NCBI GenBank assembly: GCA_039588255.1
Contig: JBDHAF010000007.1
Location: forward strand, 38,137-102,136
From: Gemmatimonadota bacterium
Lineage (GTDB): Bacteria > Gemmatimonadota > Gemmatimonadetes > Gemmatimonadales > GWC2-71-9
Length of the DNA: 64,000 bases
Direction of reading: 5' to 3'
The translations under genes and the position numbers were made by a program. Positions 12,605 through 56,093 of the stretch are shown here, piece by piece. The notes under the pieces were generated by a model that saw nothing but the letters and a program-made list of their open reading frames with translations, ran no database searches and had not been told where the DNA came from. Numbering within the stretch: the first letter of the stretch is position 1; every line of letters starts with the position of its first letter.

Positions 12605-15073
12605 ATGAGCGAGTGTAGCAGCTGCGGCTCCAGCGTGCCCACCGACGCGCAGTTCTGCACCCAGTGCGGAACGGCGGTTTCTGGTGATCCCACTAACGCA
12701 GCCACTCAGCACTCCTCCAGCCGGAGTACCAAGTCCCAAGACCAGCTCCTCGAGGCGCTGCGCGAGGCAACGCTCGGCGAATACGAGGTCCTGACGGAGC
12801 TGGGTCGCGGCGGGATGGCCGTCGTCTACCTGGCGGAAGACCTGGCGCTCGGTCGCAAGGTGGCCATCAAGGTCATGTCGCCGGAGCTGCGACTCATGGG
12901 TGAGCAGGTCGTGGAGCGGTTCAACCGGGAAGCCAAGACGGCCGCCAAGCTCTCTCACCCCCACATCATTCCCATCTACGCGGTCCAGGAACGCAACGAC
13001 CTGACCTTCTTCGTCATGAAGTTCATTCAGGGACGGTCCCTCGAGCACGTGATGCGGGAGGAGGACCGGCTCCCGGCGGCCGTGGTCCAGACCATCCTGT
13101 CCCAGGTCGGGAGCGCCCTCGACTACGCCGACCGGAACGGTGTCATTCACCGCGACGTGAAGCCGGGCAACATCATGCTGGACGAAGAGGGATGGGCGGT
13201 GGTGACCGACTTCGGCATCGCCAAGGCGGTGGAGGCGGACGGTCTCACCATGACTGGTGCAGCCCTCGGCACCCCGTCGTACATGAGCCCGGAACAGTGT
13301 GCAGGGTTGGGCATCACGGGCGCGGCGGACCAGTACTCCCTCGGGGTGCTGGCCTTCGAGATGCTGAGCGGTGAGCTCCCCTTCGAAGGCGAATCGGCGA
13401 TGACGGTCATGTATCGCCACACTCATGAACCACCACCGCCCATCACCGACGTCTGGCCGGACTGCCCACCCGACCTCGCTGAGGCCGTGATGCGCATGCT
13501 GGCCAAAAAGCCGGAAGACCGCTGGCCGTCGGTAGCGGAAGCCATCGGCGCAATCGCCGCGGTCCAGCCGGTGAACGACAGCGCAGTCCGCACGCAGATG
13601 GTGACGATGGTGAAGCGGGCCAGCAACCAGAGCCTGTTGGCCCAGTTCCACACACCCCGGACACCCATCACCGCGGGCATGGGACGGTCCCGGGCCCGTG
13701 CCATTGGATCCGCTTCGGGGCAAGTCACGCCGGACACTGCCGCGGTGGCCGTGGCGCCTCCTCCGGCGGAGGGCGGAAAGCGCCGCAGCCTTGCCTGGCT
13801 CGTGGCGGTGCCCCTCGTCGGCGTGGCAGCGGCTGCGGGCTGGTTCCTGCGGCCGACGGCCACGACCATCGAACCAACCCCGGCAGCACCCCAAGTCGCC
13901 GAACCCCCACCGGCGAGCGCGACCCCTGCGTCGATGGTTACCTCACTGGCGGTCGAGCCCGGCACCGCCGCGCTGACCGTGGGGCAGGCACAATCCCTCA
14001 CCGCCATACCGCGGGATTCGTTCGGTGCCGCGCTCGCAACCGCCGCCGTGGAGTGGACCTCCAGCAACACCGGCGTCGCCAGCGTGTCGCCGGAGGGGAT
14101 CGTTACCGCCAGGGCCGCGGGGTTCGCCCAGCTGACGGCGCGGGTCTCCGGCCATTCCGCCACCGTGGGCATCACCGTCAACGCGCCGCCGCGCACCCAA
14201 CCGGCGGCTCCCGCCGCAGTCGCATCGGTCGGTGTGTCACCTTCTTCACCGACGCTTTCGGTTGGACAGGACGTGCGACTGCAAGCGACACCGTTGGACG
14301 CCGCGGGGACTGCGTTGGCCAATCGGGCGGCAACATGGAGCACGAGCGACGAGAGTGTTGCAGCGGTTTCCGCTGCGGGACTCGTGACGGGAGGCCGGGC
14401 GGGCAGCGCGGAGATCACCGTGACCATCGGCGGTCGGTCCGCCACAGCGGCGGTGCGCGTCACGGCGATTCCAGTGGCTTCGGTGCGGATTACGCCCAGC
14501 AGTCGCAGCATTCAGTCCGGTGAGACGCTCCGCTTGACCGCCGTGACTCTCTCTGCCGACGGAGCCGAGCTCCCGGGACGAGCGATCTCCTGGAGTACGT
14601 CGAGCGACATCTTCCTGGTGTCGTCGGCGGGCGTCGTCACGGGAGTCGCCGCCGGAACGGCCACGGTGACCGCCACCAGCGAATCGCGCACGGCGACTGC
14701 GACGATCACGGTGACCGCACCGCCCACGCCCGAAACGCCGGCACCCGACCCCGCCCGCGATCGCCAACAGATCGAGGCCGCATTGCAGGCATACGCCCGC
14801 GCCGTGGAATCGCGCGACCTCGACGAGTTGCGGCGAGTCTACCCCGGTCTGACCCGACAGCAGGCAGACGCGTGGCGCGGTTTCTTCGACAGCGTCAACG
14901 ATCTCAGCTTCACGCTCACCACTACCTCGGTCGAAACCGACGGCGACACGGCTACTACTGCCGTGGACGCGCTCCAGGAGTTTCGCACCAACCGGCAGGA
15001 GCGCCGAAGCTTCACATTCCGCGCCACCCTCGAGCGGACCGCGAACGGGTGGCGCATCACACGAATCCAATAA
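12605..15073 (+). CDS. Membrane Ser/Thr protein kinase: N-terminal zinc ribbon, Hanks kinase domain, one TM segment, three Big_2 Ig-like repeats, C-terminal NTF2/SnoaL-like domain
   Basis: CSSCGSSVPTDAQFCTQCG. Kinase motifs GRGGMAVVYLA, VAIKV, HRDVKPGNIML, DFGIAK, GTPSYMSPE. TM segment LAWLVAVPLVGVAAAAGWFL. Three ~80-aa repeats (VEPGTAALTVGQAQSLTA..., VSPSSPTLSVGQDVRLQA..., ITPSSRSIQSGETLRLTA...). Tail IEAALQAYARAVESRDLDELRRVYP...NGWRITRIQ. An alternative ATG lies at 12536. Confidence 0.85.
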   Translation: MSECSSCGSSVPTDAQFCTQCGTAVSGDPTNAATQHSSSRSTKSQDQLLEALREATLGEYEVLTELGRGGMAVVYLAEDLALGRKVAIKVMSPELRLMGEQVVERFNREAKTAAKLSHPHIIPIYAVQERNDLTFFVMKFIQGRSLEHVMREEDRLPAAVVQTILSQVGSALDYADRNGVIHRDVKPGNIMLDEEGWAVVTDFGIAKAVEADGLTMTGAALGTPSYMSPEQCAGLGITGAADQYSLGVLAFEMLSGELPFEGESAMTVMYRHTHEPPPPITDVWPDCPPDLAEAVMRMLAKKPEDRWPSVAEAIGAIAAVQPVNDSAVRTQMVTMVKRASNQSLLAQFHTPRTPITAGMGRSRARAIGSASGQVTPDTAAVAVAPPPAEGGKRRSLAWLVAVPLVGVAAAAGWFLRPTATTIEPTPAAPQVAEPPPASATPASMVTSLAVEPGTAALTVGQAQSLTAIPRDSFGAALATAAVEWTSSNTGVASVSPEGIVTARAAGFAQLTARVSGHSATVGITVNAPPRTQPAAPAAVASVGVSPSSPTLSVGQDVRLQATPLDAAGTALANRAATWSTSDESVAAVSAAGLVTGGRAGSAEITVTIGGRSATAAVRVTAIPVASVRITPSSRSIQSGETLRLTAVTLSADGAELPGRAISWSTSSDIFLVSSAGVVTGVAAGTATVTATSESRTATATITVTAPPTPETPAPDPARDRQQIEAALQAYARAVESRDLDELRRVYPGLTRQQADAWRGFFDSVNDLSFTLTTTSVETDGDTATTAVDALQEFRTNRQERRSFTFRATLERTANGWRITRIQ

Positions 15074-37282: not shown

Positions 37283-39807
37283 CTAGCGCTCGCCGTTTCT
37301 CGGGGCCGCCCAATCGTGATACGGTTGGTAGTCTCTGAGTTCCAGTAGATCTACGTTGAACTCGTCACCATAATCAAACCGGCGACCCTCGGCATTGGCT
37401 TGGTGCAGGTACTCCACCGCCGCCTCGCGATCCCCAAGAATGGCGGCGATACGGGCGTGCCAAAACGTAATCTCCCCGAACAGGTATGGTCGCTGCATGT
37501 CGGCGAGCGAGGCGACGATCCGCGAGGCCGCCTCCCGGTTTCCCCGCCTCGCGGCGACGGCGGCGAGGTATCCCACATACCCGATACTGTCGGGGCGTTC
37601 GCGGGCCAGCGCTTCGAACAACTCCTGCGATTCGTCGTATCCACCGGCCACGTAGAGCGCTCGCGCAAGTCCGTATCGATTTGCCTCGAGCGCTGCCTCG
37701 TCGGGCTGCAGTGATCGAAACCAGGCCAGAGAGCGCTGGATCATTTCGTCGGCCAGGGCGCGGTCACCGTGGATGCTGACCTCGAGCGCCCCCTTGCGCA
37801 TGACGTCGCCGACGCCGTCGAACGGGAGTTGCGCTGGGAGCGAGGCGAACAGATCCCAGAGGCTGTCCCACGGTTGCGGCTCACCGATGGTGGCAAGCAC
37901 CCGAAGCTCGGCTTCGAGTACACTTCGATTGTTGGGGAACTGGAGCCTCCCCCGCCGCACCTCCTGAAGCTCCTCGCGGTGGCGTCCCAGCTGATGCAGG
38001 GACCCGGCGACGAAATTCCAATAGATGAACAGGTCCCGGGTGAATCCCCTCTGGGGATCCACGCGCCGCATCGCGTCCAGCGCCTCTTGCTGTCGATTCG
38101 CCCACATCGCGGTGATGCCCAGGAAGAGCTGTGACTCGGAGCTCGTGATCTCGGCCGCTGCGCGAATCGCGACAAGGGCGGCCTCGATGTCTCCACGTGC
38201 CACCGCCGACACCCAATCCAACTGGTGTCGGTCCAGCGGGGAGAGTCTGTCCCGCGAGCGGCTGACGATCTGTGCGAGGGAGTCGGCCTGCTCCCACTGC
38301 TCCATGGTGCCGTACACGAATGCCGCCATGAGCAGCGGTGACACGAAGGTGGAATCCAACTCGGCGGCCCGAAGTAGATGGTCGATTGCCGTACGTTGTT
38401 GGAGGCGCATGAACTGGGTCATCCCCTCCACATATTGCTGGTACGCGTCGTACGACGGCGGCTCGCTGAAGGCCGCGGCCCACTGCGTGAGCCGGTCGTC
38501 TACCAGCGTGGCGAGGGCACCCATGACGCGCTGGCGCAGCAGCTCCACGGCCACCAGAGGACTGTCCACGGGCGCGGCGACGGGACTCAATGCCAACAGC
38601 AACCGATTCTCTTCCGCGTCGGTCAGACGCGTCTGGAACTGGACCTCCTGTCCTTGCTTGTAGTACGCGCCCGACACGATGAGCTCGGCCCCCGTCTCCT
38701 CCACGAGGGCCGCCATCCTGCTCTCGGCTGTCTCCTCGGGAGTTTCCCCCCCGGCCATTCCGCTGCGGGCCACCAGTCGGACGCCATCGGCCCCAAGTGC
38801 GCCAGGCCGGGGTCCCCAGTCTGGTTCTCGAACACGGCCACGACGACCCGCTCGAGGGTTTCGGCTCCTCCCCGCGCCGGCAGCAGGACACCAAACACCA
38901 CGGCAATCGAAACGGCAACGGCCCCGACGAGGGCACCGATTCCCACTGCTCGCTTGTGGGGATACGCGGCCGACCCGACCTGGTCGGGATCCTCCAGCGC
39001 TGCCCGAAATTCCTGGGCGCTCACGAAGCGCTCCTCGGGCTCTACCGCCAACGCTTTCCGGAGCACCGACTCGACCCCACCCCGGGTCACGTGTGAGGCG
39101 TCAGTGCCGCTGAGCGATTTGCGCACCGACTGGAGCCGGGTCTCGGGGCTCTGGCGTCTGGGCGGGGTGCCGCCCAGCATCTCCAGCAGCACACACGCCA
39201 GGCTGTACACGTCGGTCCGCCCGTCCACGTCTCGGCGGCCCTCGGCCTGCTCCGGGCTCATGTAGGCGGGGGTGCCCACCGCCATGCCGGCCTGGGTGAG
39301 GCTGTCGCCCCCCGCCATCCCCAGCGCCCGGGCGATGCCGAAGTCCGCCACCAGGGCGTGCCCTTCGGCGAGGAGGATGTTCTCCGGCTTGATATCGCGG
39401 TGGATGATCCCGAGACCGTGGGCGTAGTGGAGGGCGCTCGCCACCTCCCGCGTCAACTCCAGAGCCTCTCGCAGCGACAACCCCCGCTGCCGGGTCATCC
39501 GCTGACGCAACGACTCGCCCTCGACGAACGGCATGACGAAGTACAGCAGCCCGTCGGCCTCGCCGGCCGCAAACACCGGGACGATGTGGGGGTGGGTCAA
39601 CGTGGAGGCGAGGTTGACCTCTCGCAGGAAGCGTTCGCGAAGCAGCCGCGTCGCCACATCGGGCGTCAGGACCTTGATGGCGACCTTGCGTCTGGGGTGG
39701 TGCTCTTCGGCCAGGAACACCGTCGCCATGCCCCCGCGCCCAATCTCGCGCTCGACGGTGTAGCGGTCGGCCAACGCCGCTTGTATCCGCGTCAGTAAGT
39801 CTTCCAT
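37283..39807 (-). pseudogene. Ser/Thr protein kinase - TM - TPR-like sensor protein, split into two frames (frameshift near 38746-38778)
   Basis: Frame 1 from ATG 39807: MEDLLTRIQAALADRYTVEREIGRGGMATVFLAEE...HRDIKPENILL...DFGIARA...GTPAYMSPE, TM segment GIGALVGAVAVSIAVVFGVLL, then VVVAVFENQTGDPGLAHLGPMASDW. Frame 2 continues VARSGMAGGETPEE...GAELIVSGAYYKQGQEVQFQTRL... plus a ~400-aa helical-repeat region ending at 37283. The two ORFs overlap by 151 nt. Confidence 0.7.
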
Positions 39808-46890: not shown

Positions 46891-48927
46891 ATGCGCCGCA
46901 TAGTCCCGTTCTTTGCCGCTTGCCTCGTCCTGGCCATCGCCCTGCCGTCGCAGGCCGCCGCGCAGGACCAGGACGATCGAATCACCCTGGCCCAGTACCT
47001 GGATACCGAGCGGGTATCCGATCCCCAGATCTCCCCCGACGGGCGGCAAATCGTCTACAGCCGGCGCTGGGTGGACAAGATCAACGATCGGTGGACCTCG
47101 TCGCTCTGGATCATGAACGCCGACGGAAGCCGCAACCGGCATCTCACCGAAGGGTCGTCGCCTCGCTGGTCGCCCGATGGACAGCGTCTCGCGTTCACCC
47201 GCGAGGGCGAGCCCCAGGGGTCCCAGATCTTCGTCCGCTGGATGGACGCCGAAGGGGCCGAGACCCAGATCACCACCCTGGAGCAGGGACCCGGCAGCAT
47301 CGCATGGGCCCCCAACGGAGAGCACATCGCGTTCACCATGACCGTACCGGGGGATCCCCAGTGGCGGGTCTCGCTTCCAGGACGTCCCAGAGGCGCCAAG
47401 TGGACCGAGGACCCCAAAGTGGTCACGCGCCTCGACTACCGGCAGGACCGGGTGGGTTTCAACGACGACGGCTATCGCCACATCTTCGTCGTCCCGTCGG
47501 AGGGCGGCACCGCCCGGCAGCTCACCAGCGGCGACTGGCGTCACAACGGCGTGGCGTGGACCCCCGACTCCCGGGAGATCCTCTTCTCGGCAAATAGGGT
47601 CGAGGAAGCCGAGCACACCTGGCGCCAGTCCGACGTCTATGCGGTGAGTGTGGAGACCCGCGACATCCGCCAGCTCACCACGCGGAACGGACCCGACGGT
47701 AGCCCCGTCGTCTCACCCAACGGTCGCCTGGTGGCGTACACAGGCTACGATTGGACCGACGACACGTTCATCGCCGGTGACATCTACGTGATGAACATCG
47801 ACGGGTCGAATCCCCGGGAGATCTCGGGCGACCACGACCGGCGCGCCGGCGGCTTGACATGGGCGCCGGACAACGGCGGCGTCTACTTCGGGTCGAGCGA
47901 CCGGGGCACCCGCCACGTCTATTTCGCGTCGGTGAACGGCGGCGTGCGGAAGGTGACCGACGGCAACGTCCAGATCTCCATGTCCAGCATGACCGACGAC
48001 TTGTTCGCGGTCGGGACGCTGACGAGCTACCACGAGCCGGGGGACATTGTCTCGTTCAACCTGCGCAACGGGAACCCGACCCAGCTCACCCATGTGAACG
48101 CGGACATCCTGGCCGGCAAGCAGTTGGGTGAGGTCGAGGAGATCTGGTACAAGTCCGTCGACGACTACGACATCCAGGGGTGGATCGTCAAGCCGCCGGA
48201 CTTCGATCCCTCCAAGAAGTACCCCTTGATGCTCAAGATCCACGGCGGCCCCCACGGCATGTATGGGGTGGGCTTCAGCTTCGAGTGGCAGGAGCATGCC
48301 GCCAACGGGTACGTGGTGCTGTACACGAATCCCCGGGGCAGCGCGGGATACGGCTCACCGTTCGGCAACGCCATCAAGCGGGCCTATCCCGGCAAGGACT
48401 ACGACGATTTGATGGCCGGTGTGGACACAGTGATCGGCCGGGGGTACATCGACGCCCGCAACATGTTCGTGTACGGCTGCAGCGGTGGCGGAGTGTTGAC
48501 GTCGTGGGTGGTGGGCCACACCGACCGCTTTGCCGCCGCGTCGGCCAACTGCCCGGTGACCAACTGGTTCTCCTTTGTGGGGACCACGGACGGCACGACC
48601 TGGTACCGCAATTTCGACAAACTCCCCTGGGAGGATCCGTCGGAGCACCTGCAGCGCTCCCCGATCATGTACGTGGGCAACGTGACCACTCCGACGATGC
48701 TCATGACCGGCGTGAACGACCTGCGGACGCCGATGCCCCAGACCGAGGAGTACTATGTGGCGCTACGGTATCTCAGGGTGCCCACGGCGATGATCCGGTT
48801 CAACAACGAGTGGCACGGCACGAGCAGCACGCCGTCCAACTTCCTCCGGACGCAACTTTACCTCCGGGGGTGGTTCGAGAAGCATTCGACGAAGGACGAG
48901 GATCGGATTACGTCGGATCTGCAATGA
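46891..48927 (+). CDS. Secreted S9 family serine peptidase with N-terminal TolB-like beta-propeller
   Basis: ATG 46891 follows AGGAGG. Signal peptide MRRIVPFFAACLVLAIALPSQAAA. Propeller repeats (SPDGRQIVYS, WSPDGQRLAF, WAPNGEHIAF). Catalytic GCSGGG and a C-terminal D...H region. Confidence 0.9.
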   Translation: MRRIVPFFAACLVLAIALPSQAAAQDQDDRITLAQYLDTERVSDPQISPDGRQIVYSRRWVDKINDRWTSSLWIMNADGSRNRHLTEGSSPRWSPDGQRLAFTREGEPQGSQIFVRWMDAEGAETQITTLEQGPGSIAWAPNGEHIAFTMTVPGDPQWRVSLPGRPRGAKWTEDPKVVTRLDYRQDRVGFNDDGYRHIFVVPSEGGTARQLTSGDWRHNGVAWTPDSREILFSANRVEEAEHTWRQSDVYAVSVETRDIRQLTTRNGPDGSPVVSPNGRLVAYTGYDWTDDTFIAGDIYVMNIDGSNPREISGDHDRRAGGLTWAPDNGGVYFGSSDRGTRHVYFASVNGGVRKVTDGNVQISMSSMTDDLFAVGTLTSYHEPGDIVSFNLRNGNPTQLTHVNADILAGKQLGEVEEIWYKSVDDYDIQGWIVKPPDFDPSKKYPLMLKIHGGPHGMYGVGFSFEWQEHAANGYVVLYTNPRGSAGYGSPFGNAIKRAYPGKDYDDLMAGVDTVIGRGYIDARNMFVYGCSGGGVLTSWVVGHTDRFAAASANCPVTNWFSFVGTTDGTTWYRNFDKLPWEDPSEHLQRSPIMYVGNVTTPTMLMTGVNDLRTPMPQTEEYYVALRYLRVPTAMIRFNNEWHGTSSTPSNFLRTQLYLRGWFEKHSTKDEDRITSDLQ

Positions 48928-48951
48928 GGTAGGATGTCGCTGCTAGAAATG

Positions 48952-48978
48952 AGGCGGGCCGCACATCGCGGCCCGCCT
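48952..48978. terminator. Bidirectional intrinsic terminator hairpin between convergent genes
   Basis: aggcgggccgc-(acatc)-gcggcccgcct. Perfect 11-bp stem followed by tttcttgtcttgt and preceded by gaaat. It lies between the S9 peptidase stop (48927) and the kinase stop (49001). Confidence 0.6.
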
Positions 48979-49000
48979 TTCTTGTCTTGTCGATCCGTTG

Positions 49001-50290
49001 CTACTTGCCCACCTTCCGGCCACACCAGGGGCACTTCACCCAGTAGTCCGGCAACACCCCCCAACCACACCCCGAACACTTCGCCGTCACATGCTCGATC
49101 TTCCAGCGCCGCGTCACTTTGGTGCGGCACCACGGGCAGTACCGCATGAACGGCATGAGGTCTCCCCTGCACTCGCCACACCGGGCCGCGTACCGCACGT
49201 CGCTGTAGTGCCGGTCCGACGGCTGCTGCACGCGCCCGCCGTAACACCACGCGCAGAACGGCCAGTCCCGCTTGATGCCTCGGCCGCAGCGCCGGCAGCG
49301 CGCCGGTGCTCGCGTTGAGCCTCGAAAGGTTCGCCGCGCCGTGCCGCACCAGGGGCAGTGGAACATCGACTCGGCCACCGGCCTCCCGCACTTGCCGCAG
49401 CCGTGCCGCGCCTCCAGCGCCCTGCCGTAGCGCCGGCGGAATTCCCGCATGCGCACCGTTCTCCACTTGCTGTCTCCGCGGACCTTTGCTCTTCGCCTCC
49501 GCGCGGCGGTGCGCAACGCATGCTTCTTGATGCGGCGAAACGCCGCGAGCATGTGGCCGGAGTCTGCATAGCGCGCCCGTTCGTCCAACTCCATCGCCCG
49601 CCGCAGGAACGAGACGAAGTCCGGGTGCACGTTGCGGCGCAAGCGCGCGAACCCCACTGGCGGCCAGTCGTAGGGCCACTCGGGAAGTGAGCCCGAAAAC
49701 ATTCGATAGATCACCAGGCCCAAGGCAAACACGTCGGAGCGGAGTGACGGTCTCCCGATTCCCTGCTCCGGCGCCAGATACCCGAAGGTGCCTGTTCCCC
49801 CACCAACGAGCGTCCGCGACCGCAGCGCCACCTTGGCGATGCCGAAGTCCGTGAGCCGCACCCGGTTGTCGGGAAAGAGAATCAGGTTTTCGGGCTTGAT
49901 GTCACAGTGAATGATCCGGCGTTCATGAGCGTAGGCCACGGCCTCCAACAGTTGTTCGGCGAGGACAAGTGCCGTGCGGCCGGCGAGGCGGCGCTTGAGT
50001 CGTTCCGCCAGCGTGGCCTCGCCCAACGGGTAGACGATGACGAAACGCTTCCCGATGAAGCTGGCGGTCTTCATGGGAAGGATGTTGGGATGGTCGAGGC
50101 CAGCGGTGATGCGGACCTCGTTTCGGAAATCGTTCAGCGTCTCCTTATCTACGAGGTGGCTGTGGGGGATCTTGAGGGCCACCCGGACGCCCTCGATCGT
50201 GTCATAAGCCCGGTAGACGGTTGCGAAGCCGCCCTTCCCGACACGACCGATGATCCGGTACTTGCCGAGGGTGTCTCTCGCCTTCAGCAT
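49001..50290 (-). CDS. Cytoplasmic Ser/Thr protein kinase with four C-terminal zinc ribbons
   Basis: GKGGFATVYRA, VALKI, HCDIKPENLIL, DFGIAK, GYLAPE. Then four C-x2-C...C-x2-C units between residues 298 and 423. No TM segment. Confidence 0.85.
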   Translation of the reverse strand: MLKARDTLGKYRIIGRVGKGGFATVYRAYDTIEGVRVALKIPHSHLVDKETLNDFRNEVRITAGLDHPNILPMKTASFIGKRFVIVYPLGEATLAERLKRRLAGRTALVLAEQLLEAVAYAHERRIIHCDIKPENLILFPDNRVRLTDFGIAKVALRSRTLVGGGTGTFGYLAPEQGIGRPSLRSDVFALGLVIYRMFSGSLPEWPYDWPPVGFARLRRNVHPDFVSFLRRAMELDERARYADSGHMLAAFRRIKKHALRTAARRRRAKVRGDSKWRTVRMREFRRRYGRALEARHGCGKCGRPVAESMFHCPWCGTARRTFRGSTRAPARCRRCGRGIKRDWPFCAWCYGGRVQQPSDRHYSDVRYAARCGECRGDLMPFMRYCPWCRTKVTRRWKIEHVTAKCSGCGWGVLPDYWVKCPWCGRKVGK

Positions 50291-50320
50291 GCGGGAGATG
50301 GGCGGAGTGACAAACCGACG

Positions 50321-53284
50321 TCAGCTGGCCTGAGCCGCGCTGTCGTCGTCGCGCAGCTCCTTCACTGCGTCGTGGATCCGCTGGGTCATCTCCCGCTCCC
50401 GGCGCATCGCCTCGAGCAACCCCTCCGCTTCCTTGGCCTCGAAGGCCAGCTGTCCGGACTGCTCGATGACGTGATCCACCACGGCCTTTTGGCTGCCCAG
50501 CGTATCCAGTCCCGCGCGAATGTCCAGCAGCAGCCCCTGTGCCTGGGCCAACCGCGCCTCGGCAGACACTATCTTCTTCTGGTGCTCCTCAACGGCAGAC
50601 AGCACGGTCTCCATCTCGGCCGCCTTCCCCAGCACGATGTCCAACGCGCGGCTGGCCTCGTCCACCTCGTCCCGCGCCGCGGAAATTGCCTTAACGTCCG
50701 CCAACGCCTGCTCCGCGGTCCCAAAGAGCTTATGGAGATCGTCCCGCACAGCGTCGACGCTCTCCTGCCGCGACAGCAGCATTTCCAGCGAGCGGGCCAG
50801 CTCCTGTTCGGTCTGGTCGAGCTGCGCCAGCTTCTCCTCGAACTGGGTGACCCGTTTTTCGGCGAACCGGAGACTGCCGGCTCGCGCCTCGAGGCGCTCG
50901 GCGTGCAGCCCAACCTTGTCCGACTGCTTTTCGGCGGTCCTCAGCTCCGCCGACAGCTCAAGCAACCGGGATTCCAGCGATTGCACCACTTCGGCCGCGT
51001 CGCTGCGCAGCGCAGTCACCCGCTCGAGCTGCTCGGTGGCCTGGTCCAGAGCCTGTTGGCGTTGTTCGATCTCGCCGCCCACCCGGTCCACTCGCTTCGA
51101 CAACGCCTCCACCTCTTCGGCACGACCCTCAGCCGCGTCGACGCCCTCACCGACCTCCGCCATCCGCCGCTCCGCTTGCTCCACACTCGCCGTGACGGAC
51201 GTGATGACGTTGCCCACCCTGTCGGCCGCCGCCGCCTGCTCTGCCACCTTCTTGAAGCGGTGGTCCGCGTCGTCCAGGCTCGTGAGGAGATTGCTCGTGC
51301 GTTCGTCCAACTGCGCCCCCGTGCGCTGCAATTCCGTCATGCGCACTTCGAGCACGGCCAGTGTCTCTCGACGTGCGTCGAGATTAGACGCTGCGGAGAC
51401 GACCCGGTCGGCGTTCTGGCGCATGTGCTCGACGTTGCCGGCCAAGTCGTCGAGTAAGGCGATCTTCGTGCGGATGTCGCGGATTGAGTCCTGCACCGTC
51501 GAGAGCCACGCGCTCGTTTCGGTGTGACCGGTTTGCATCCGCTCGATTTCCGCGCGCGCGCCGCGCAACTGCTCCAGGGCGTCGCGCACCTCTTCCCGGG
51601 AGCCGCGCAGAGTTCCCAGGTCCCGCACGGCGTCTTCCACATCGGCTTTCGTAGCTTCGATCCGCTCGAGTCGTTGCGCCACCTCGGAGGCGGTGGCCTC
51701 GGCTCTATCCATCGCGCCGCGCATCCCTTCCACCCGCTCGGCCTGCTCGCCGAGTTGCGCAAGTTCCGACGACAACGTGCCCATCCGTGCCGCGACCGTA
51801 TCTGCTCGCTCAGTAGCCTCCGTGATGCGACCCACCGAGCTGTCGAACGTTTGGAATCTGCCTTCAATGTCCACCACGCCGCCCCGGAGGTCCACGATGC
51901 GTTGGCCGATGGCCTCGAGGTTGCCGCTCTCGATTCGGAAACGCTCGACACCCCTGCGGACCTCTTCCTCCAGACCGTTGAGGCGTTCCCGAACCGCGGC
52001 GGCATCCTGGTCCACTCTCGCTTGCTCGGCGCGCAGCTCGGTCGTGCGCCCCGACACCTGACGGTTGAGATCCCGCAATTCGCCGATGTTGGACTGGGCT
52101 TTCTTGACCTCCTTGACCTGCTCCTCCGCTCGCTTGATCTGGGACCGCAGGTCCTGCTGCATCTCGGACAGGTTGCGCAGCTGTGCCTCGGCGCGGTCGA
52201 CGGTTTCGCGTTGTCGCTCCAACGCCGCGGTCTTCTGCGTCACATGATCCGACATGCCCCGCAACGCGTTCAGGTGCCGCTCGGTCCGCACCGCCAACTC
52301 TTCAGCCTTGGAAAGGTCCTGCATGGTGGCTTCGACGGACGCCACGCGGGTAGTCGCTTCCCCGACGCCCTCGTTGAGCCGCTCTAGGTTTTTGCGGACT
52401 TCATCGTATTTGGACAGCGCGCTGCCTTGTGAGGAGCGAAGATCCGATTGGTCTTCCTTCACCCGGGCCACGTCGCCACCGAAATCCGACAGTTGTTTAT
52501 TCAATTCCTCGAGTTGACCGCGCAGCTTCACCATCAAGCCCGACGGGCCCAACAACCCTGATGCCTCTTGCCTGGCGGCTGTGAGCGCATCTACATCGCC
52601 ACGTAGCTGCGTAACCTCGGCTCCGACGCCCGAGAGTTCGGTGAACTTGGCGGCCAGCTCGTCCACGCCGCGGAGCGTCTGCTCGAGCTCTTTCGCAATT
52701 TCGATCTGCGTCTCCTTCACCTCCTCGGCGCGCTTCTCCGCCACGTCCACCCGGAATTCCACGTCCTTCAACCCGTCGCCGCGAGTCTCGACCTCCCGAA
52801 TGTGATCCTCGACCGCCGAGAGCTTCTCCCGCAGCTTGGTCACCATGCCCGCCGGCCCTGACAACTTCGCGAGCTCGTCCCTGGCCTCCGAGACTTCCGA
52901 CACGAACTGCCGCAGTTCCGTCAGCCGGTCGTCCAGATCGTTGGCGCTCTGGAGAGTATCTGCCAGCGAGCTGGTGGCCTGGTCTTGCGACGTTGCGAGA
53001 TCTCTGCCCCGCTCCTCCAGCGCCGCGATGCGGGACATCACCTCACGGACCGCCGCATTCTCTTGAAGCTCACCGAGCCGGTCGCCGAGCTCCTGGATGG
53101 CCGCCTGGGTCTTTTCCAGGGGAGCCGTGATCTTCTCGAAGTTCTCCGACGCAGACTCGGTCTTCTTCACCGCCGCGCCCAGGGCCTTCTTCTCGCGCCG
53201 GGCCTTTTCGATGAGCTTCTGAAGCTCTTCGGGGAGATTCTCGATCTCGCCCCGGCCCAACAGAGATTTGAACAGGGATGCCAT
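50321..53284 (-). CDS. Large (987 aa) coiled-coil protein, no recognisable enzymatic or membrane domain
   Basis: ATG 53284. Composition is dominated by E/R/A/L/Q/V with heptad-like periodicity throughout. No Walker motifs and no TM segment. Related internal blocks (LSGPAGMVTKLREKLS vs LLGPSGLMVKLRGQLE) suggest internal duplication. The stop lies 30 nt before the kinase start. Confidence 0.7.
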   Translation of the reverse strand: MASLFKSLLGRGEIENLPEELQKLIEKARREKKALGAAVKKTESASENFEKITAPLEKTQAAIQELGDRLGELQENAAVREVMSRIAALEERGRDLATSQDQATSSLADTLQSANDLDDRLTELRQFVSEVSEARDELAKLSGPAGMVTKLREKLSAVEDHIREVETRGDGLKDVEFRVDVAEKRAEEVKETQIEIAKELEQTLRGVDELAAKFTELSGVGAEVTQLRGDVDALTAARQEASGLLGPSGLMVKLRGQLEELNKQLSDFGGDVARVKEDQSDLRSSQGSALSKYDEVRKNLERLNEGVGEATTRVASVEATMQDLSKAEELAVRTERHLNALRGMSDHVTQKTAALERQRETVDRAEAQLRNLSEMQQDLRSQIKRAEEQVKEVKKAQSNIGELRDLNRQVSGRTTELRAEQARVDQDAAAVRERLNGLEEEVRRGVERFRIESGNLEAIGQRIVDLRGGVVDIEGRFQTFDSSVGRITEATERADTVAARMGTLSSELAQLGEQAERVEGMRGAMDRAEATASEVAQRLERIEATKADVEDAVRDLGTLRGSREEVRDALEQLRGARAEIERMQTGHTETSAWLSTVQDSIRDIRTKIALLDDLAGNVEHMRQNADRVVSAASNLDARRETLAVLEVRMTELQRTGAQLDERTSNLLTSLDDADHRFKKVAEQAAAADRVGNVITSVTASVEQAERRMAEVGEGVDAAEGRAEEVEALSKRVDRVGGEIEQRQQALDQATEQLERVTALRSDAAEVVQSLESRLLELSAELRTAEKQSDKVGLHAERLEARAGSLRFAEKRVTQFEEKLAQLDQTEQELARSLEMLLSRQESVDAVRDDLHKLFGTAEQALADVKAISAARDEVDEASRALDIVLGKAAEMETVLSAVEEHQKKIVSAEARLAQAQGLLLDIRAGLDTLGSQKAVVDHVIEQSGQLAFEAKEAEGLLEAMRREREMTQRIHDAVKELRDDDSAAQAS

Positions 53285-53396
53285 GAATCCTCGTCAACAG
53301 GGGACAAGGAGAAGTTGGCACCCGGTCACCGAAAAGCCAATACAGCCGGACCCTCATCCACTGGCGCCGGGGGGCCGTGGTGTCCACATTTGCGAC

Positions 53397-53774
53397 ATGA
53401 AAAAACCCTCAAAGAAACTGGTCGTCATGGGGGACCGGGTTCTCATCGCGCCTGAGGAAGGCGAGGAGCGAACCCGGGTGGGGCTCTATCTCCCGGCCAC
53501 GGCCGTAGACCGGCAGGCCGTGCAGAGCGGCCGGATCGTGGCCGTGGGACCTGGGACACCGATGGCCGAGCCCACCGCGCTGGACGACGAGCCGTGGCGC
53601 ATCGGCAAGAGCGATACGCGCTTCGTGCCGATGCAGGCGGAGGTGGGCGACTTCGCCATTTTCTTCAGGAAGGCCGCGGTCGAGATCACGTTCGAGGACG
53701 ACAGCTACTTGGTGGTCCCCCAGGCCGCCATTCTCGTGCTGACTCGGGCCGACGATCCCCTCGAAGATCTGTGA
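53397..53774 (+). CDS. GroES (Cpn10)-like protein, stand-alone
   Basis: MKKPSKKLVVMGDRVLIAPEEGEERTRVGLYLPATAVDRQAVQSGRIVAVGPG...GDFAIFFRKAAVEITFEDDSYLVVPQAAILVL has the Cpn10 pattern (R.L...........GI.LP......G.V.AVG.G). There is no groEL next to it. Confidence 0.65.
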   Translation: MKKPSKKLVVMGDRVLIAPEEGEERTRVGLYLPATAVDRQAVQSGRIVAVGPGTPMAEPTALDDEPWRIGKSDTRFVPMQAEVGDFAIFFRKAAVEITFEDDSYLVVPQAAILVLTRADDPLEDL

Positions 53775-54181
53775 CACGGGATCACCACGTCATTTTCCTC
53801 TGCGTCGCCAATTCGGCGCGGAGCCAGATGGCCGAGGGGCTGGCCCGCGCCGTTGCCCCGCCGGGCTGGACGGTCTCCAGCGCCGGCTCGGCCCCAGGGC
53901 ACCTGAGCTCCCGAGCCACCAATGTCATGGCAGAGATCGGGATCGACATCAGCTCCCACCACTCGAAGGGGCTGGACGAGGTCCCGTTGGACGGTGCGGA
54001 CATGGTCGTGACCCTCTGCGCCGAGGAGGCGTGTCCGGTCATCCCTCCCCACGTGGAGCACCTCGATTGGGCGATGCCCGACCCCGGGGCGGCCACCGGC
54101 TCCGAGGAGGCGGAGTTGGACGCGTTCCGGAAAGCCCGGGACGAGATCCGGCGACGCGTGGCCGGGCTGTGGCCTGGATGA
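53771..54181 (+). CDS. Low-molecular-weight phosphatase family protein (LMW-PTP / ArsC type)
   Basis: GTG start overlaps the GroES-like stop (GTGA 53771-74). P-loop FLCVANSARSQMAEG (C-x5-R-S). Later TLCAEEACP and DPG. Confidence 0.85.
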   Translation: MTRDHHVIFLCVANSARSQMAEGLARAVAPPGWTVSSAGSAPGHLSSRATNVMAEIGIDISSHHSKGLDEVPLDGADMVVTLCAEEACPVIPPHVEHLDWAMPDPGAATGSEEAELDAFRKARDEIRRRVAGLWPG

Positions 54182-54185
54182 GTCG

Positions 54186-54395
54186 ATGACCGGCGTGATG
54201 ATCGTGGTGCTCACGGGAGTGTTGGTTTGGCTGGTGTGGGCACCGGCCAAGCGGCGTGCCGCCGCATCTCAACCGGACGACGAGACGCTGGAGGCAGAAC
54301 GGGAGGTCCAAGACCTCGACGCGTCCACCACTCCCGAAGAGGCAGACGACCAGCTTCCGGACTGGGGCCCGGGCGTCCCCAAGGAACGCCGCTGA
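54186..54395 (+). CDS. Hypothetical small membrane protein (69 aa)
   Basis: ATG lies 4 nt after the phosphatase stop. One TM segment MTGVMIVVLTGVLVWLVWAP followed by an acidic tail. Confidence 0.4.
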   Translation: MTGVMIVVLTGVLVWLVWAPAKRRAAASQPDDETLEAEREVQDLDASTTPEEADDQLPDWGPGVPKERR

Positions 54396-54397
54396 GG

Positions 54398-54736
54398 TTA
54401 CTCGCGTCGCTGGCGGCGGCGGCGGATGCGTCGCCGCTGCCGGGACAGACCCCTGCGGGCATCGTCTCGCCAATCCTCGATGTGGTCCCGGGCATCGTCC
54501 CGTAGCTCCCGAAGTCGCTTCTTCACGCGGCGGCGGGTGACCTCACCTCGAGCCGGGGCACCCAGCCACACCGCTCCCGCACCCACCAGCGTCCCGAGCA
54601 GCAGCCCGGCGACAAAGAGACCGCTGCCGGACCTCGGGGATACGAACTCTTCGACGTCGTCCTCGGAGAGGTCCTCGTCGTCCAGTTCTTCGTCGAGGAT
54701 CTCCTCGTCGTCCTCAACTCTCAGCTTGCGAACCAT
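54398..54736 (-). CDS. YtxH-like domain protein
   Basis: Acidic N-terminus, then GLFVAGLLLGTLVGAGAVWLGAPARGEVTRRRVKKRLRELRDDARD, the YtxH pattern (hydrophobic helix + APxSGxxTR). Confidence 0.55.
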   Translation of the reverse strand: MVRKLRVEDDEEILDEELDDEDLSEDDVEEFVSPRSGSGLFVAGLLLGTLVGAGAVWLGAPARGEVTRRRVKKRLRELRDDARDHIEDWRDDARRGLSRQRRRIRRRRQRRE

Positions 54737-54749
54737 GGGACCTCCAACG

Positions 54750-56093
54750 TCAGGGAATACGTGAAGCGCCGCGCATCAACTCTTCGATTGCCTCCACGGT
54801 GCGCGGGGCATTGGCGGATAGAATCTCGGCGCCGGTTGCCGTCACCAATATGTCATCCTCGATCCGGATACCGAGGTTCTCGTCGTTGATGTACAGCCCA
54901 GGCTCGATAGTGAAGACCGCGCCGGCCTGCAACGGCAGTCTCCGGTCACCCACGTCGTGCACGCGCATGCCCAAGTGGTGGCTGATACCGTGCAGGGAAT
55001 AGCGATTGCACGACTGCCCGCCGCACAGCTCGCCGCTGTGCTCGTCGACGTAGGACCGGGCAATCCCGTTGAGCTCCTCGAAGGTGACACCGGGGCGCAC
55101 TGCGTCGATCGCCGCCTGCTGCGCTCCGAGAACCAGGCTGTAAATGTCCCGCTGGCGCGGAGTGAATCTGCCGTTTACCGGGATCGTGCGAGTCACGTCG
55201 GCGGTGTACTGCCCGTACTCGGCCCCGATGTCCATCACCACCACGTCGCCGGCCCCCATGCGCCGGCGGTTGATGTCGTAGTGCAAAGTCGTGCTGTTGG
55301 GACCCGATCCCACAATGGACGGAAAACCGACGCGATCGGCGCCGTTGACGCGGAACGTGTACTCGATCTCCGCCTCGAGTTGGTACTCGTACATGTTTGG
55401 CCGCACCGCCTGCATCGCCGCCCGATGCGCCAAGGCCGTGATGTCGATGGCCCGGCGCAGCCGCACCATCTCGGCGTCGTCCTTCACCGTCCGCAGGCTG
55501 TCGAGCAGGGGCCGGACGTCGATCAGCTCCTCGGCGGGGTCCAACCACCGCCGAATACGCCCGCTACCCTCCGACTGGCGCGCCACGACCGTGCGGAGCG
55601 GCCCGCCGCTCTGGCTCAGCGACGCCGCCATCAGGCTGTCGAGGGCGTCGAGGGACAGCACCGACATCACACCAGTCAGCTCTGCCGCCTCGGGGCCCGG
55701 GCCGAGCTTCCGGCCCGTCCACTGCTCCTGGCGCACGTTGCGCCGCGGGAGGACGAGGTGGGATTGCTCCACCCCCGACGCCCCGGCGGCGATGACCAAC
55801 CACGCATTGGGGGACTCGAGCCCCGTGAGATAGAAGAAGTAATCGTCTTGGCGAAAATCGTTGTCCTGCAGCACGAGATCTTCCAAGTCGCGGGATGTGG
55901 CCGCCGGGATCACGATGACCCCCGGCCCGGTGTGCAGTGCGAGCTGCTGACGTCGAAGCCGAGTGGCCTCCACGTCGACCGGCCGGCCGTAGCCGGGCAG
56001 AGCGGCGACAGGGTCGGGCGCCGGCCCGAGTGATTGCGCAGAGACGGGATTGACCGCGAGAACCAGGGCAAGACCAGCCAGGCGGATTATCAT
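54750..56093 (-). CDS. Secreted Xaa-Pro aminopeptidase (M24B, aminopeptidase P family)
   Basis: Signal peptide MIIRLAGLALVLAVNPVSAQ. M24 metal-ligand blocks VVMDIGAEYGQYTADVTRT, HGISHHLGMRVHD, FTIEPGLY and IRIEDDILV. Confidence 0.85.
   Translation of the reverse strand: MIIRLAGLALVLAVNPVSAQSLGPAPDPVAALPGYGRPVDVEATRLRRQQLALHTGPGVIVIPAATSRDLEDLVLQDNDFRQDDYFFYLTGLESPNAWLVIAAGASGVEQSHLVLPRRNVRQEQWTGRKLGPGPEAAELTGVMSVLSLDALDSLMAASLSQSGGPLRTVVARQSEGSGRIRRWLDPAEELIDVRPLLDSLRTVKDDAEMVRLRRAIDITALAHRAAMQAVRPNMYEYQLEAEIEYTFRVNGADRVGFPSIVGSGPNSTTLHYDINRRRMGAGDVVVMDIGAEYGQYTADVTRTIPVNGRFTPRQRDIYSLVLGAQQAAIDAVRPGVTFEELNGIARSYVDEHSGELCGGQSCNRYSLHGISHHLGMRVHDVGDRRLPLQAGAVFTIEPGLYINDENLGIRIEDDILVTATGAEILSANAPRTVEAIEELMRGASRIP

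Follow-up and report, generated by a model that had tools for sequence, protein, structure and literature searches.

A conserved, so far unnamed family of long all-helical proteins with a regular sub-heptad periodicity in Gemmatimonadota and allied lineages

Introduction

Several bacteria contain long cytoplasmic proteins that are almost entirely α-helical. Crescentin of Caulobacter, FilP and Scy of Streptomyces and the Ccrp proteins of Helicobacter and Bdellovibrio carry no enzymatic domain, transmembrane (TM) segment or nucleotide-binding motif, have short non-rod ends and occur in restricted lineages. Crescentin is heptad-based with a stutter, and FilP and Scy are built on a 51-residue repeat (a period of ~3.64 residues). 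The SpiroCoCo proteins, described from spirochaetes (NCBIfam models NF047514 and NF047515; LA_3659 family), are also large bacterial coiled-coil proteins of unknown function. Here we describe a protein that shares the form of crescentin, FilP, Scy and Ccrp and differs from them in its periodicity. It is encoded in a 64,000-nt stretch of a Gemmatimonadota bacterium genome (assembly GCA_039588255.1, contig JBDHAF010000007.1, positions 38,137 to 102,136 of the forward strand; hereafter the window). Its gene is followed on the same strand by a Ser/Thr kinase gene and faces, across a short intergenic region, a divergent operon encoding a GroES-like and an ArsC-like protein. We refer to the product as the rod protein. 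Its rod exceeds crescentin and FilP in length by a factor of about two to three.

Coiled coils with stammers, i.e. 3-residue insertions, were reportedly analysed by Brown, Cohen and Parry in 1996. Stammers lower the periodicity of a coiled coil and raise its left-handed supercoiling; known cases are confined to local, strained stretches, and non-heptad coiled coils in their vast majority exceed a period of 3.5 (Hartmann et al. 2016, PMC4786415). The deviation found in the rod protein goes the other way from this published trend and extends, uniform and conserved, along about a thousand residues.

The family to which the rod protein belongs occurs in Gemmatimonadota and Eisenbacteria, phyla that are abundant in soil and sediment and whose cell biology is almost unexplored, and in further uncultured lineages. 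A conserved rod of constrained length, ~130 nm by our estimate, could offer a handle on cell organisation in these bacteria.

The rod gene and its product

The rod gene and the elements of its product that are used below are as follows (AF2, AlphaFold2 model).

50321-53284, minus strand: rod protein gene, 987 aa, all-helical (open reading frame, homologues and a period of 3.455)
53255-53284, minus strand: N-terminal peptide MASLFKSLLG (codons 1-10), a predicted short amphipathic helix followed by a G/S/N-rich linker, conserved in the family
52847-52858, minus strand: GPAG, residues 143-146, first helix break or hinge; AF2 break at 140-143, hydrophobic phase running across it
52538-52549, minus strand: GPSG, residues 246-249, second hinge motif; AF2 break at 246-249, marking the module multiplied in Longimicrobiales
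52205-52237, minus strand: QKTAALERQRE, residues 350-360, the most conserved motif of the family; K351, A354, E356, Q358 and R359 invariant (alignment A2)

An initial annotation, made from the nucleotide sequence, had reported a 987-aa open reading frame (ORF) at 50321-53284 without a Walker motif, TM segment or signal peptide, and recomputation bore out each of these points. A search of the 987 residues for Walker A ([AG]xxxxGK[ST]) returned nothing, and the highest 19-residue Kyte-Doolittle mean (1.12) corresponds to neither a TM segment nor a signal-peptide core. The protein is rich in E (13.2%), A (13.1%), L (11.0%) and R (10.1%), with four prolines, one tryptophan and no cysteine. The non-rod ends are short: the 10-residue N-terminal peptide with its linker, and an acidic C-terminal tail that follows the long central rod. 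A single copy of the gene is present in the window.

An AF2 model of the monomer was built on 11 sequences (predicted local distance difference test, pLDDT, 53; predicted TM-score, pTM, 0.22). In this low-confidence model ~97% of the chain is helical, with helices 250-455 and 546-986 unbroken and breaks at 9-18, 140-143 (GPAG), 246-249 (GPSG) and 456-468. Residues 2-8 are modelled as helix and residues 9-18 as coil, in agreement with a short terminal helix and a linker. The amphipathic-looking N-terminus pointed out in the initial annotation, MASLFKSLLGRG, is indeed present at the start of the protein.

A conserved and collinear protein family

A word-indexed search found 14 homologues with 68-29% identity over most of the length. 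An exhaustive profile search extended the family to at least 266 cluster representatives with E≤1e-30, or 642 when the threshold was relaxed to E≤1e-10. Full-length members, mostly of 866-917 aa, align in one stretch over profile positions 1-885 of 891. Since homologues align end to end down to 28% identity, 50321-53284 is a real gene and not a chance ORF. The rod protein belongs to a conserved, collinear and so far unnamed family of long all-helical proteins, mostly of 870-920 aa, that carry no enzymatic, DNA-binding, TM or secretion domain; we hold this structural and family assignment to be highly probable.

A scan of one genome per species yielded 63 genomic loci that carry a family gene. 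They were fetched by a pattern around the QKTAALERQRE motif, derived from an alignment without truncated members; below, L-numbers denote genomic loci and P-numbers the family member proteins. The sources are metagenome-assembled genomes (MAGs) labelled Gemmatimonadota (Gemmatimonadales, Gemmatimonadaceae, Longimicrobiales), Candidatus Eisenbacteria or 'uncultured bacterium', and the nearest locus (87%) comes from a Gemmatimonadota MAG. One Eisenbacteria MAG, CAVSAC01, holds two family-matching loci (L061 and L064), pointing to paralogues in at least some Eisenbacteria.

Three motifs are invariant in the family: QKTAALExQRE, ETxAWL and SLRFxEKRxTQFEE. The N-terminal peptide is conserved at a length of 8-10 residues, with variants such as MASWIKSLFG and MATLLKSLLG, and MLDALKKL and MFDALKRR in the most distant members.

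The length of family members changes by whole 93-aa modules in a lineage-specific manner. The 1363-aa Longimicrobiales homologue at L007 (5965-10053) has GPxG motifs at residues 157, 250, 343, 436, 529 and 622, i.e. six exact tandem modules of 93 residues. Because 93 residues equal 27 turns of 3.444, these duplications keep the hydrophobic phase. The L007 modules show recent lengthening of the rod in Longimicrobiales by phase-preserving units.

The initial annotation had also described related internal blocks in the window protein. Both blocks are present, GPAGMVTKLREKL from residue 143 and GPSGLMVKLRGQL from residue 246; a clear internal duplication at these two GPxG blocks was not borne out, since outside the motif itself they resemble each other no more than other pieces of the same protein do (alignment score 76, within the range of 49-84 obtained for such pieces). 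Duplication of the GPxG module is clear only in the Longimicrobiales relatives.

Hydrophobic periodicity of the rod

The positions of L, I, V, M and F in the window protein were subjected to Fourier transform. The peak lies at 3.455 with a power of 15.2, compared to 0.43 at 3.50 and to a maximum of 2.1 in 200 shuffles of the protein. The 11 members tested, the most divergent at 28% identity, all have their peak at 3.455-3.46, with a power of 15-20, and each third of the window protein taken alone gives a period of 3.435-3.46. The heptad-like character seen in the initial annotation was therefore right as to an E/A/L/R-rich helical sequence and wrong as to its period, which is 3.455 and not the 3.50 of a plain heptad.

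Autocorrelation of the hydrophobic positions has maxima at 7, 14, 17, 24, 31, 38, 45, 55, 62, 69 and 76. When the sequence is written in rows of 38, hydrophobic columns fall at 3, 6, 10, 13, 17, 20, 24, 27, 31, 34 and 37. The resulting 3-4-3-4-3-4-3-4-3-3-4 pattern places 38 residues in 11 turns, or five heptads plus one 3-residue stammer. For the window protein chi2/df is 5.45 for modulus 38 versus 1.19 for modulus 7; among 63 full-length members the median values are 4.73 and 1.11, respectively, with a few outliers as low as 0.84. Phase coherence along the whole protein holds in nearly all full-length members tested. A Viterbi register trace of four diverse members revealed stammer (+3) or double-stammer/-1 events only and no stutters. 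About 26 stammer equivalents are distributed evenly along the ~1000 residues of the rod, and in the window protein the 38/11 pattern runs uninterrupted from end to end, the GPxG motifs included.

Controls set the scale of the signal. An artificial chain with a perfect 38/11 pattern and equal core occupancy gave a power of 12.5 and heptads with random register breaks gave 2.5. The arms of Escherichia coli MukB and SbcC gave 1.4-2.2, and a T4-type fibritin 3.2 at 3.595. We rejected the idea of a true 38-residue repeat in the sequence: the mean Kullback-Leibler divergence of the columns is 0.61 versus 0.47 in shuffles, and modulus 45 fits some members about equally well. With so little column information beyond hydrophobicity, the period of 3.455-3.46 is structural and not a sequence motif.

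The discontinuities of the rod are of the same type as those of stammer-containing coiled coils, with a period below 3.5 and, by expectation, more left-handed supercoiling. Known stammers (10/3), however, are isolated and usually absorbed by a short 3-10 segment, whereas those of the rod number ~26, are evenly spread and are accompanied by no stutter. A uniform, conserved period of 3.455 over ~1000 residues appears unusual, because stammers are otherwise local and non-heptad periods mostly exceed 3.5. The family is a natural case in which the limits of sustained left-handed overwinding can be tested, and for structural biologists the periodicity of the rod is of more interest than its genomic neighbourhood. 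Taken at the level of sequence, the rod family is a kind of bacterial coiled-coil-rich protein made distinctive by its regular sub-heptad periodicity.

Proposed role of the rod

The rod protein resembles crescentin, FilP, Scy and Ccrp in being long, cytoplasmic and almost all helical, in the lack of enzymatic, TM or nucleotide-binding elements, in its short non-rod ends and in its restriction to certain lineages. No sequence relationship to these proteins was detectable in Pfam, NCBIfam and PDB profile searches, and the periodicities differ, the rod having 38/11 (3.455) throughout. The likeness would extend to a structural role, which for the rod we infer from sequence form. A scaffold or filament role is the most plausible kind of function.

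According to the explanation that we favour, the chain would form a continuous coiled coil, more tightly left-handed than a heptad one. With parallel strands in register it would measure some 130-145 nm, and about half of that if the chain is folded back. It would act as a cytoplasmic structural rod, tether, spacer or filament subunit, and the N-terminal peptide, by analogy, would fix one of its ends to the inner membrane or to a partner protein. The kinase encoded downstream would be a co-transcribed, clade-specific passenger, and the rod may or may not be its substrate. As a whole, this explanation, a structural rod or tether of a conserved unnamed family next to an incidental kinase, seems to us somewhat probable.

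The anchoring step follows the example of MreB, MinD, FtsA, SepF and Noc, which have short terminal amphipathic membrane-targeting helices. The rod protein has a comparable element, a terminal amphipathic helix of 8-10 residues with a flexible linker, and the expected oligomer would provide avidity. A membrane-tethered scaffold is, on this analogy, a tentative proposal. Still more speculative is the fullest version: that Gemmatimonadota, Eisenbacteria and allied lineages possess a fixed-length, membrane-held cytoskeletal rod or ruler made of a continuous coiled coil of ~900-1360 residues, with a uniform 38/11 pattern, no stutter and a tighter supercoil than any described long one. We regard it as doubtful in this complete form.

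Several observations speak against the favoured explanation or parts of it. The N-terminal peptide is not conspicuous: its mean hydrophobicity is 0.42 and its hydrophobic moment, 0.41, is ordinary, at the 56th percentile among the 10-mers of the rod protein itself, so that the anchor role is one of analogy. Only ~40-70% of the residues at core positions are LIVMF, Ala and polar residues being frequent there, which makes stability as a canonical coiled coil uncertain. The one structural model that bears on the oligomeric state, strand orientation and length suggested above is of a monomer and of low confidence (pLDDT 53). The kinase gene, the rod gene and the spacer between them are kept together in three genomes. 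Finally, there is no conserved gene neighbour, and the function of the rod is therefore read from its form alone.

Neighbourhoods of the rod gene vary by clade and no neighbour is universal. In Longimicrobiales, a recX gene lies convergently downstream. In one Gemmatimonadales subclade (L019, L021, L023, L024, L028, L032, L033, L052-L054 and L056) genes for TamB and an Omp85/POTRA protein (TamA/BamA-like) are found directly upstream on the same strand, with gaps of 21-731 nt. In a distant member the rod gene follows a CDP-alcohol phosphatidyltransferase gene, and the Eisenbacteria loci are heterogeneous.

The adjacent kinase and the ArsC-like protein

The initial annotation had proposed that the rod is a scaffold or cytoskeletal element controlled by phosphorylation, since the genes of a kinase and of a low-molecular-weight (LMW) phosphatase flank its own. 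On this model, the kinase next to it would switch the assembly of the rod, and the phosphatase, encoded across the divergent promoter, would reverse it. The elements that bear on this proposal are listed below.

49001-50290, minus strand: Hanks-type Ser/Thr kinase, 429 aa, cytoplasmic (Pfam Pkinase E 5.4e-35, 121.5 bits versus a cutoff of 31.7; DZR E 5.9e-10)
50291-50320, minus strand: 30-nt spacer from the rod stop codon (TGA) to the kinase ATG, with no terminator-like site
48951-48979, no strand: GC-rich hairpin in the gap where the kinase and S9-peptidase genes converge, 12 pairs of which 10 are G-C; a consensus match only
53771-54181, plus strand: gene of an ArsC-type protein (LMWPc fold) with the P-loop CVANSARS (Pfam LMWPc E 4.4e-18)

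The cytoplasmic Hanks kinase was found where the initial annotation had placed it, on the same strand 30 nt after the rod stop codon. Its catalytic core is intact. The translation contains the motifs GKGGFATV, VALK, HCDIKPEN, DFG and APE, the catalytic loop (HCD) being of the non-RD type, and four CxxC...CxxC zinc ribbons follow at the C-terminus. The kinase gene is probably co-transcribed with the rod gene, because the 30-nt spacer has no terminator-like site and a strong hairpin follows the kinase gene; by its position and pairing, the hairpin is likely to be the end of the rod-kinase transcript. A scan of 48800-54800 for σ70-type promoters found none and is uninformative for this phylum.

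The arrangement of the two genes, the intact catalytic core and the presence of the same pair in L004 (kinase 89% identical) and L011 (80%) speak for such a switch. The comparative data, however, do not support control of the rod by flanking kinase and phosphatase. Among ~60 loci, a full kinase gene follows the rod gene in the window, L004 and L011 only. The window locus has five close relatives (rod protein at least 67% identical), and in two of the five the catalytic domain of the kinase is deleted next to an intact rod gene: L001/L006 retain kinase residues 339-426 only, and L005 residues 388-429 only, as a 38-codon ORF with the last zinc ribbon. No adjacent kinase was found in the ~55 other family loci, from Longimicrobiales, other Gemmatimonadales and Eisenbacteria. 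Unrelated large kinases are encoded within 6 kb of the rod gene in L025, L033, L057, L063 and L064, at a rate no higher than the density in the window (3 Hanks kinases per 64 kb).

Orthologues of the kinase itself are located elsewhere. Those in three other genomes (L070, L071 and L072; 57-60% identical) are never beside a coiled-coil gene; their neighbour is an aminotransferase gene ahead of them or, in two of these genomes, a PP2C phosphatase gene directly after them. The clustering of the genes that flank the rod gene was done on a gene call filtered by GC content at third codon positions (GC3).

The second arm of the proposal concerns the 'phosphatase', which belongs to a separate, divergently transcribed operon. 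The ArsC-type protein aligns best with the thioredoxin-coupled arsenate reductase of Bacillus subtilis (1JL3, E 2e-28), and nearly all its other solved relatives are arsenate reductases. In the alignment with 1JL3, C(VANSA)R corresponds to C(TGNSC)R and tlCaeea--Cp to tlCgdaadkCp; the P-loop cysteine and both downstream redox cysteines (the equivalents of Cys82 and Cys89) are kept, with a loop between the latter that is two residues shorter. At the same time, the protein scores 128.1 bits on TIGR02691 (arsC_pI258), below the cutoff of 174.3, and its gene has no arsR, arsB or acr3 beside it, the neighbours being the GroES-like gene and a 69-aa ORF. In sequence it looks like an arsenate reductase, and there is no sign of a protein phosphatase that would pair with the kinase.

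Of the initial proposal, the filament-type protein without a named family stands, and its control by kinase and phosphatase does not. We consider a phosphorylation switch of this design improbable. A clade-specific kinase-substrate relation with the rod protein is possible. On the comparison of loci, the kinase is best described as a lineage-specific neighbour or passenger from an independently located kinase family, and not as a defining partner of the rod.

Three further observations were made on the kinase. First, its remnants at L001 (11232-11498) and L005 (9000-9128) comprise the last one or two zinc ribbons in short ORFs of 48 and 38 codons; they are ~80% identical to the window kinase, contain no frameshift and represent two independent deletions. 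They could be the outcome of recent loss or be retained mini-proteins. Second, the family of kinases with four zinc ribbons (~430-445 aa) is 57-65% identical across Gemmatimonadota and Planctomycetota (Phycisphaerae, Pirellulales), a conservation that appears unusually high for a bacterial Hanks kinase. Third, the window encodes two more Hanks kinase domains (12770-13381, plus strand; 38992-39765, minus strand), 30-33% identical to the kinase described here. Three Hanks kinases in 64 kb indicate a kinase-rich genome, and a kinase neighbour of the rod gene is therefore not improbable by chance; an adjoining kinase in such a genome argues only weakly for regulation.

Comparison with curated families

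The initial annotation could name no family for the rod protein, and we likewise found no curated family that holds it convincingly. In a Pfam scan every match was below the gathering score. A PDB profile search with the rod family gave only generic coiled-coil matches (best E 1.4e-5).

The curated model that the window protein does exceed is SpiroCoCo_C (NF047515), with 160 bits versus a cutoff of 125. A relative, P0003, reaches 145.5 bits, and the window protein also passes LA_3659_fam (67 bits versus a cutoff of 36). The rod protein could then be a true, already classified SpiroCoCo member. The match, however, behaves as a generic coiled-coil similarity. The reversed rod sequence still scores 110 bits on SpiroCoCo_C, and on SMC and ASRP models it scores about as well as the forward one. 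The relatives P0009 (111.6) and P0013 (124.2) fall below the cutoff of 125. The score is a sum of 4-7 overlapping stretches, and the profile region matched varies by member (17-241, 73-243, 39-235 and 3-191). On the N-terminal model, SpiroCoCo_N (NF047514), the rod protein scores 67.3 bits versus a cutoff of 75 and its relatives 35-45. Composition-preserving and phase-preserving shuffles of the rod protein have no SpiroCoCo score, and the signal thus reflects a local coiled-coil 'grammar', not homology. Membership appears quite improbable to us, and the rod protein is not filed under SpiroCoCo; a distant kinship is possible on these scores. A search of the literature on SpiroCoCo, LA_3659 or a Gemmatimonadota coiled-coil cytoskeleton returned nothing.

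Where relatives of the rod protein are named in the source database (IMG), the labels are automatic, e.g. 'chromosome segregation ATPase' or 'SbcCD ATPase subunit'. These names, together with weak similarity to coiled-coil portions of the SMC, Rad50, JetC and LmuB models and with the convergent recX gene in Longimicrobiales, would suit a headless SMC/Rad50/MukB-type arm or another nucleoid-associated tether. The rod protein, however, has no Walker A motif, head or hinge domain. Its scores on SMC, Rad50, SbcC and MukB models are 72-102 bits versus cutoffs of 567-1087, cover arm regions only and are reproduced by the reversed sequence. The MukB and SbcC arms have no coherent period of 3.455. We rate this alternative as very improbable. 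For annotation, rod relatives are mislabelled under these names, and coiled-coil character by itself can be enough to carry them over the SpiroCoCo_C cutoff.

A phage tape-measure-like or secreted fibrous protein, suggested by matches of PHROG tape-measure models over helical stretches (24-59 bits), is extremely improbable, given the chromosomal housekeeping context of the gene (LigA, M24 peptidase, GAF, YtxH, S9 peptidase, kinase), which is syntenic among relatives and recurs on chromosomal MAG contigs of up to 3.1 Mb, the lack of phage genes nearby and of family members in prophages or virions in this analysis, the absence of a signal peptide or TM segment, and the single copy in the 64-kb window together with a length and sequence conserved across phyla.

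Two other identities were tried and rejected. A methyl-accepting chemotaxis protein would carry a signalling domain; Pfam MCPsignal has no match in the rod protein, and the one weak profile match, to 2CH7 (E 1.4e-5), covers 140 positions. As for a defence system, PADLOC matches to LmuB and JetC correspond to arm regions and those to PD-T4-6 to a plain kinase domain, and all are generic.

The divergent operon

The remaining features upstream of the rod gene are as follows.

53285-53396, no strand: divergent intergenic region, 112 nt, with GAGGA 3 nt (TTC) before the rod ATG
53397-53774, plus strand: GroES (Cpn10)-like gene, 125 aa (Pfam Cpn10 50.8 bits versus a cutoff of 21.1)
54186-54395, plus strand: 69-aa ORF with a hydrophobic N-terminus and an acidic tail, last gene of the divergent operon, no family match

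The initial annotation had correctly recognised the 112-nt divergent gap, the GroES-like gene, the CVANSARS P-loop of the next gene and its GTGA coupling, and the hydrophobic N-terminus of the 69-aa ORF. In the overlap, the TGA of the GroES-like gene (53772-53774) is interlocked with the GTG of the ArsC-type gene (53771-53773).

The best solved relatives of the GroES-like protein are Cpn10/Cpn20 (E 4.5e-9), and it falls below every NCBIfam GroES equivalog cutoff (best 50 versus 136). Its mobile-loop region is altered, with an insertion of ~25 residues relative to canonical GroES. No groEL follows the gene, the next one being ArsC-like.

The 69-aa ORF is conserved (63-76% identity) in the close clade only. 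The same holds for the synteny of the whole block, which comprises the GroES-like gene, the ArsC-like gene, the 69-aa ORF, YtxH, M24 peptidase, GAF and LigA. The divergent GroES-like/ArsC-like/69-aa operon is a syntenic block unrelated to the rod, and the GroES-like gene does not belong to the rod system.

Sequence conservation extends to the intergenic region, with a mean column identity of 83% when the window is aligned with L004, L005 and L006. It contains an inverted repeat, TTGGC-N16-GCCAA, at 53315-53340, both arms of which are invariant in the four close relatives aligned and which may be an operator site.

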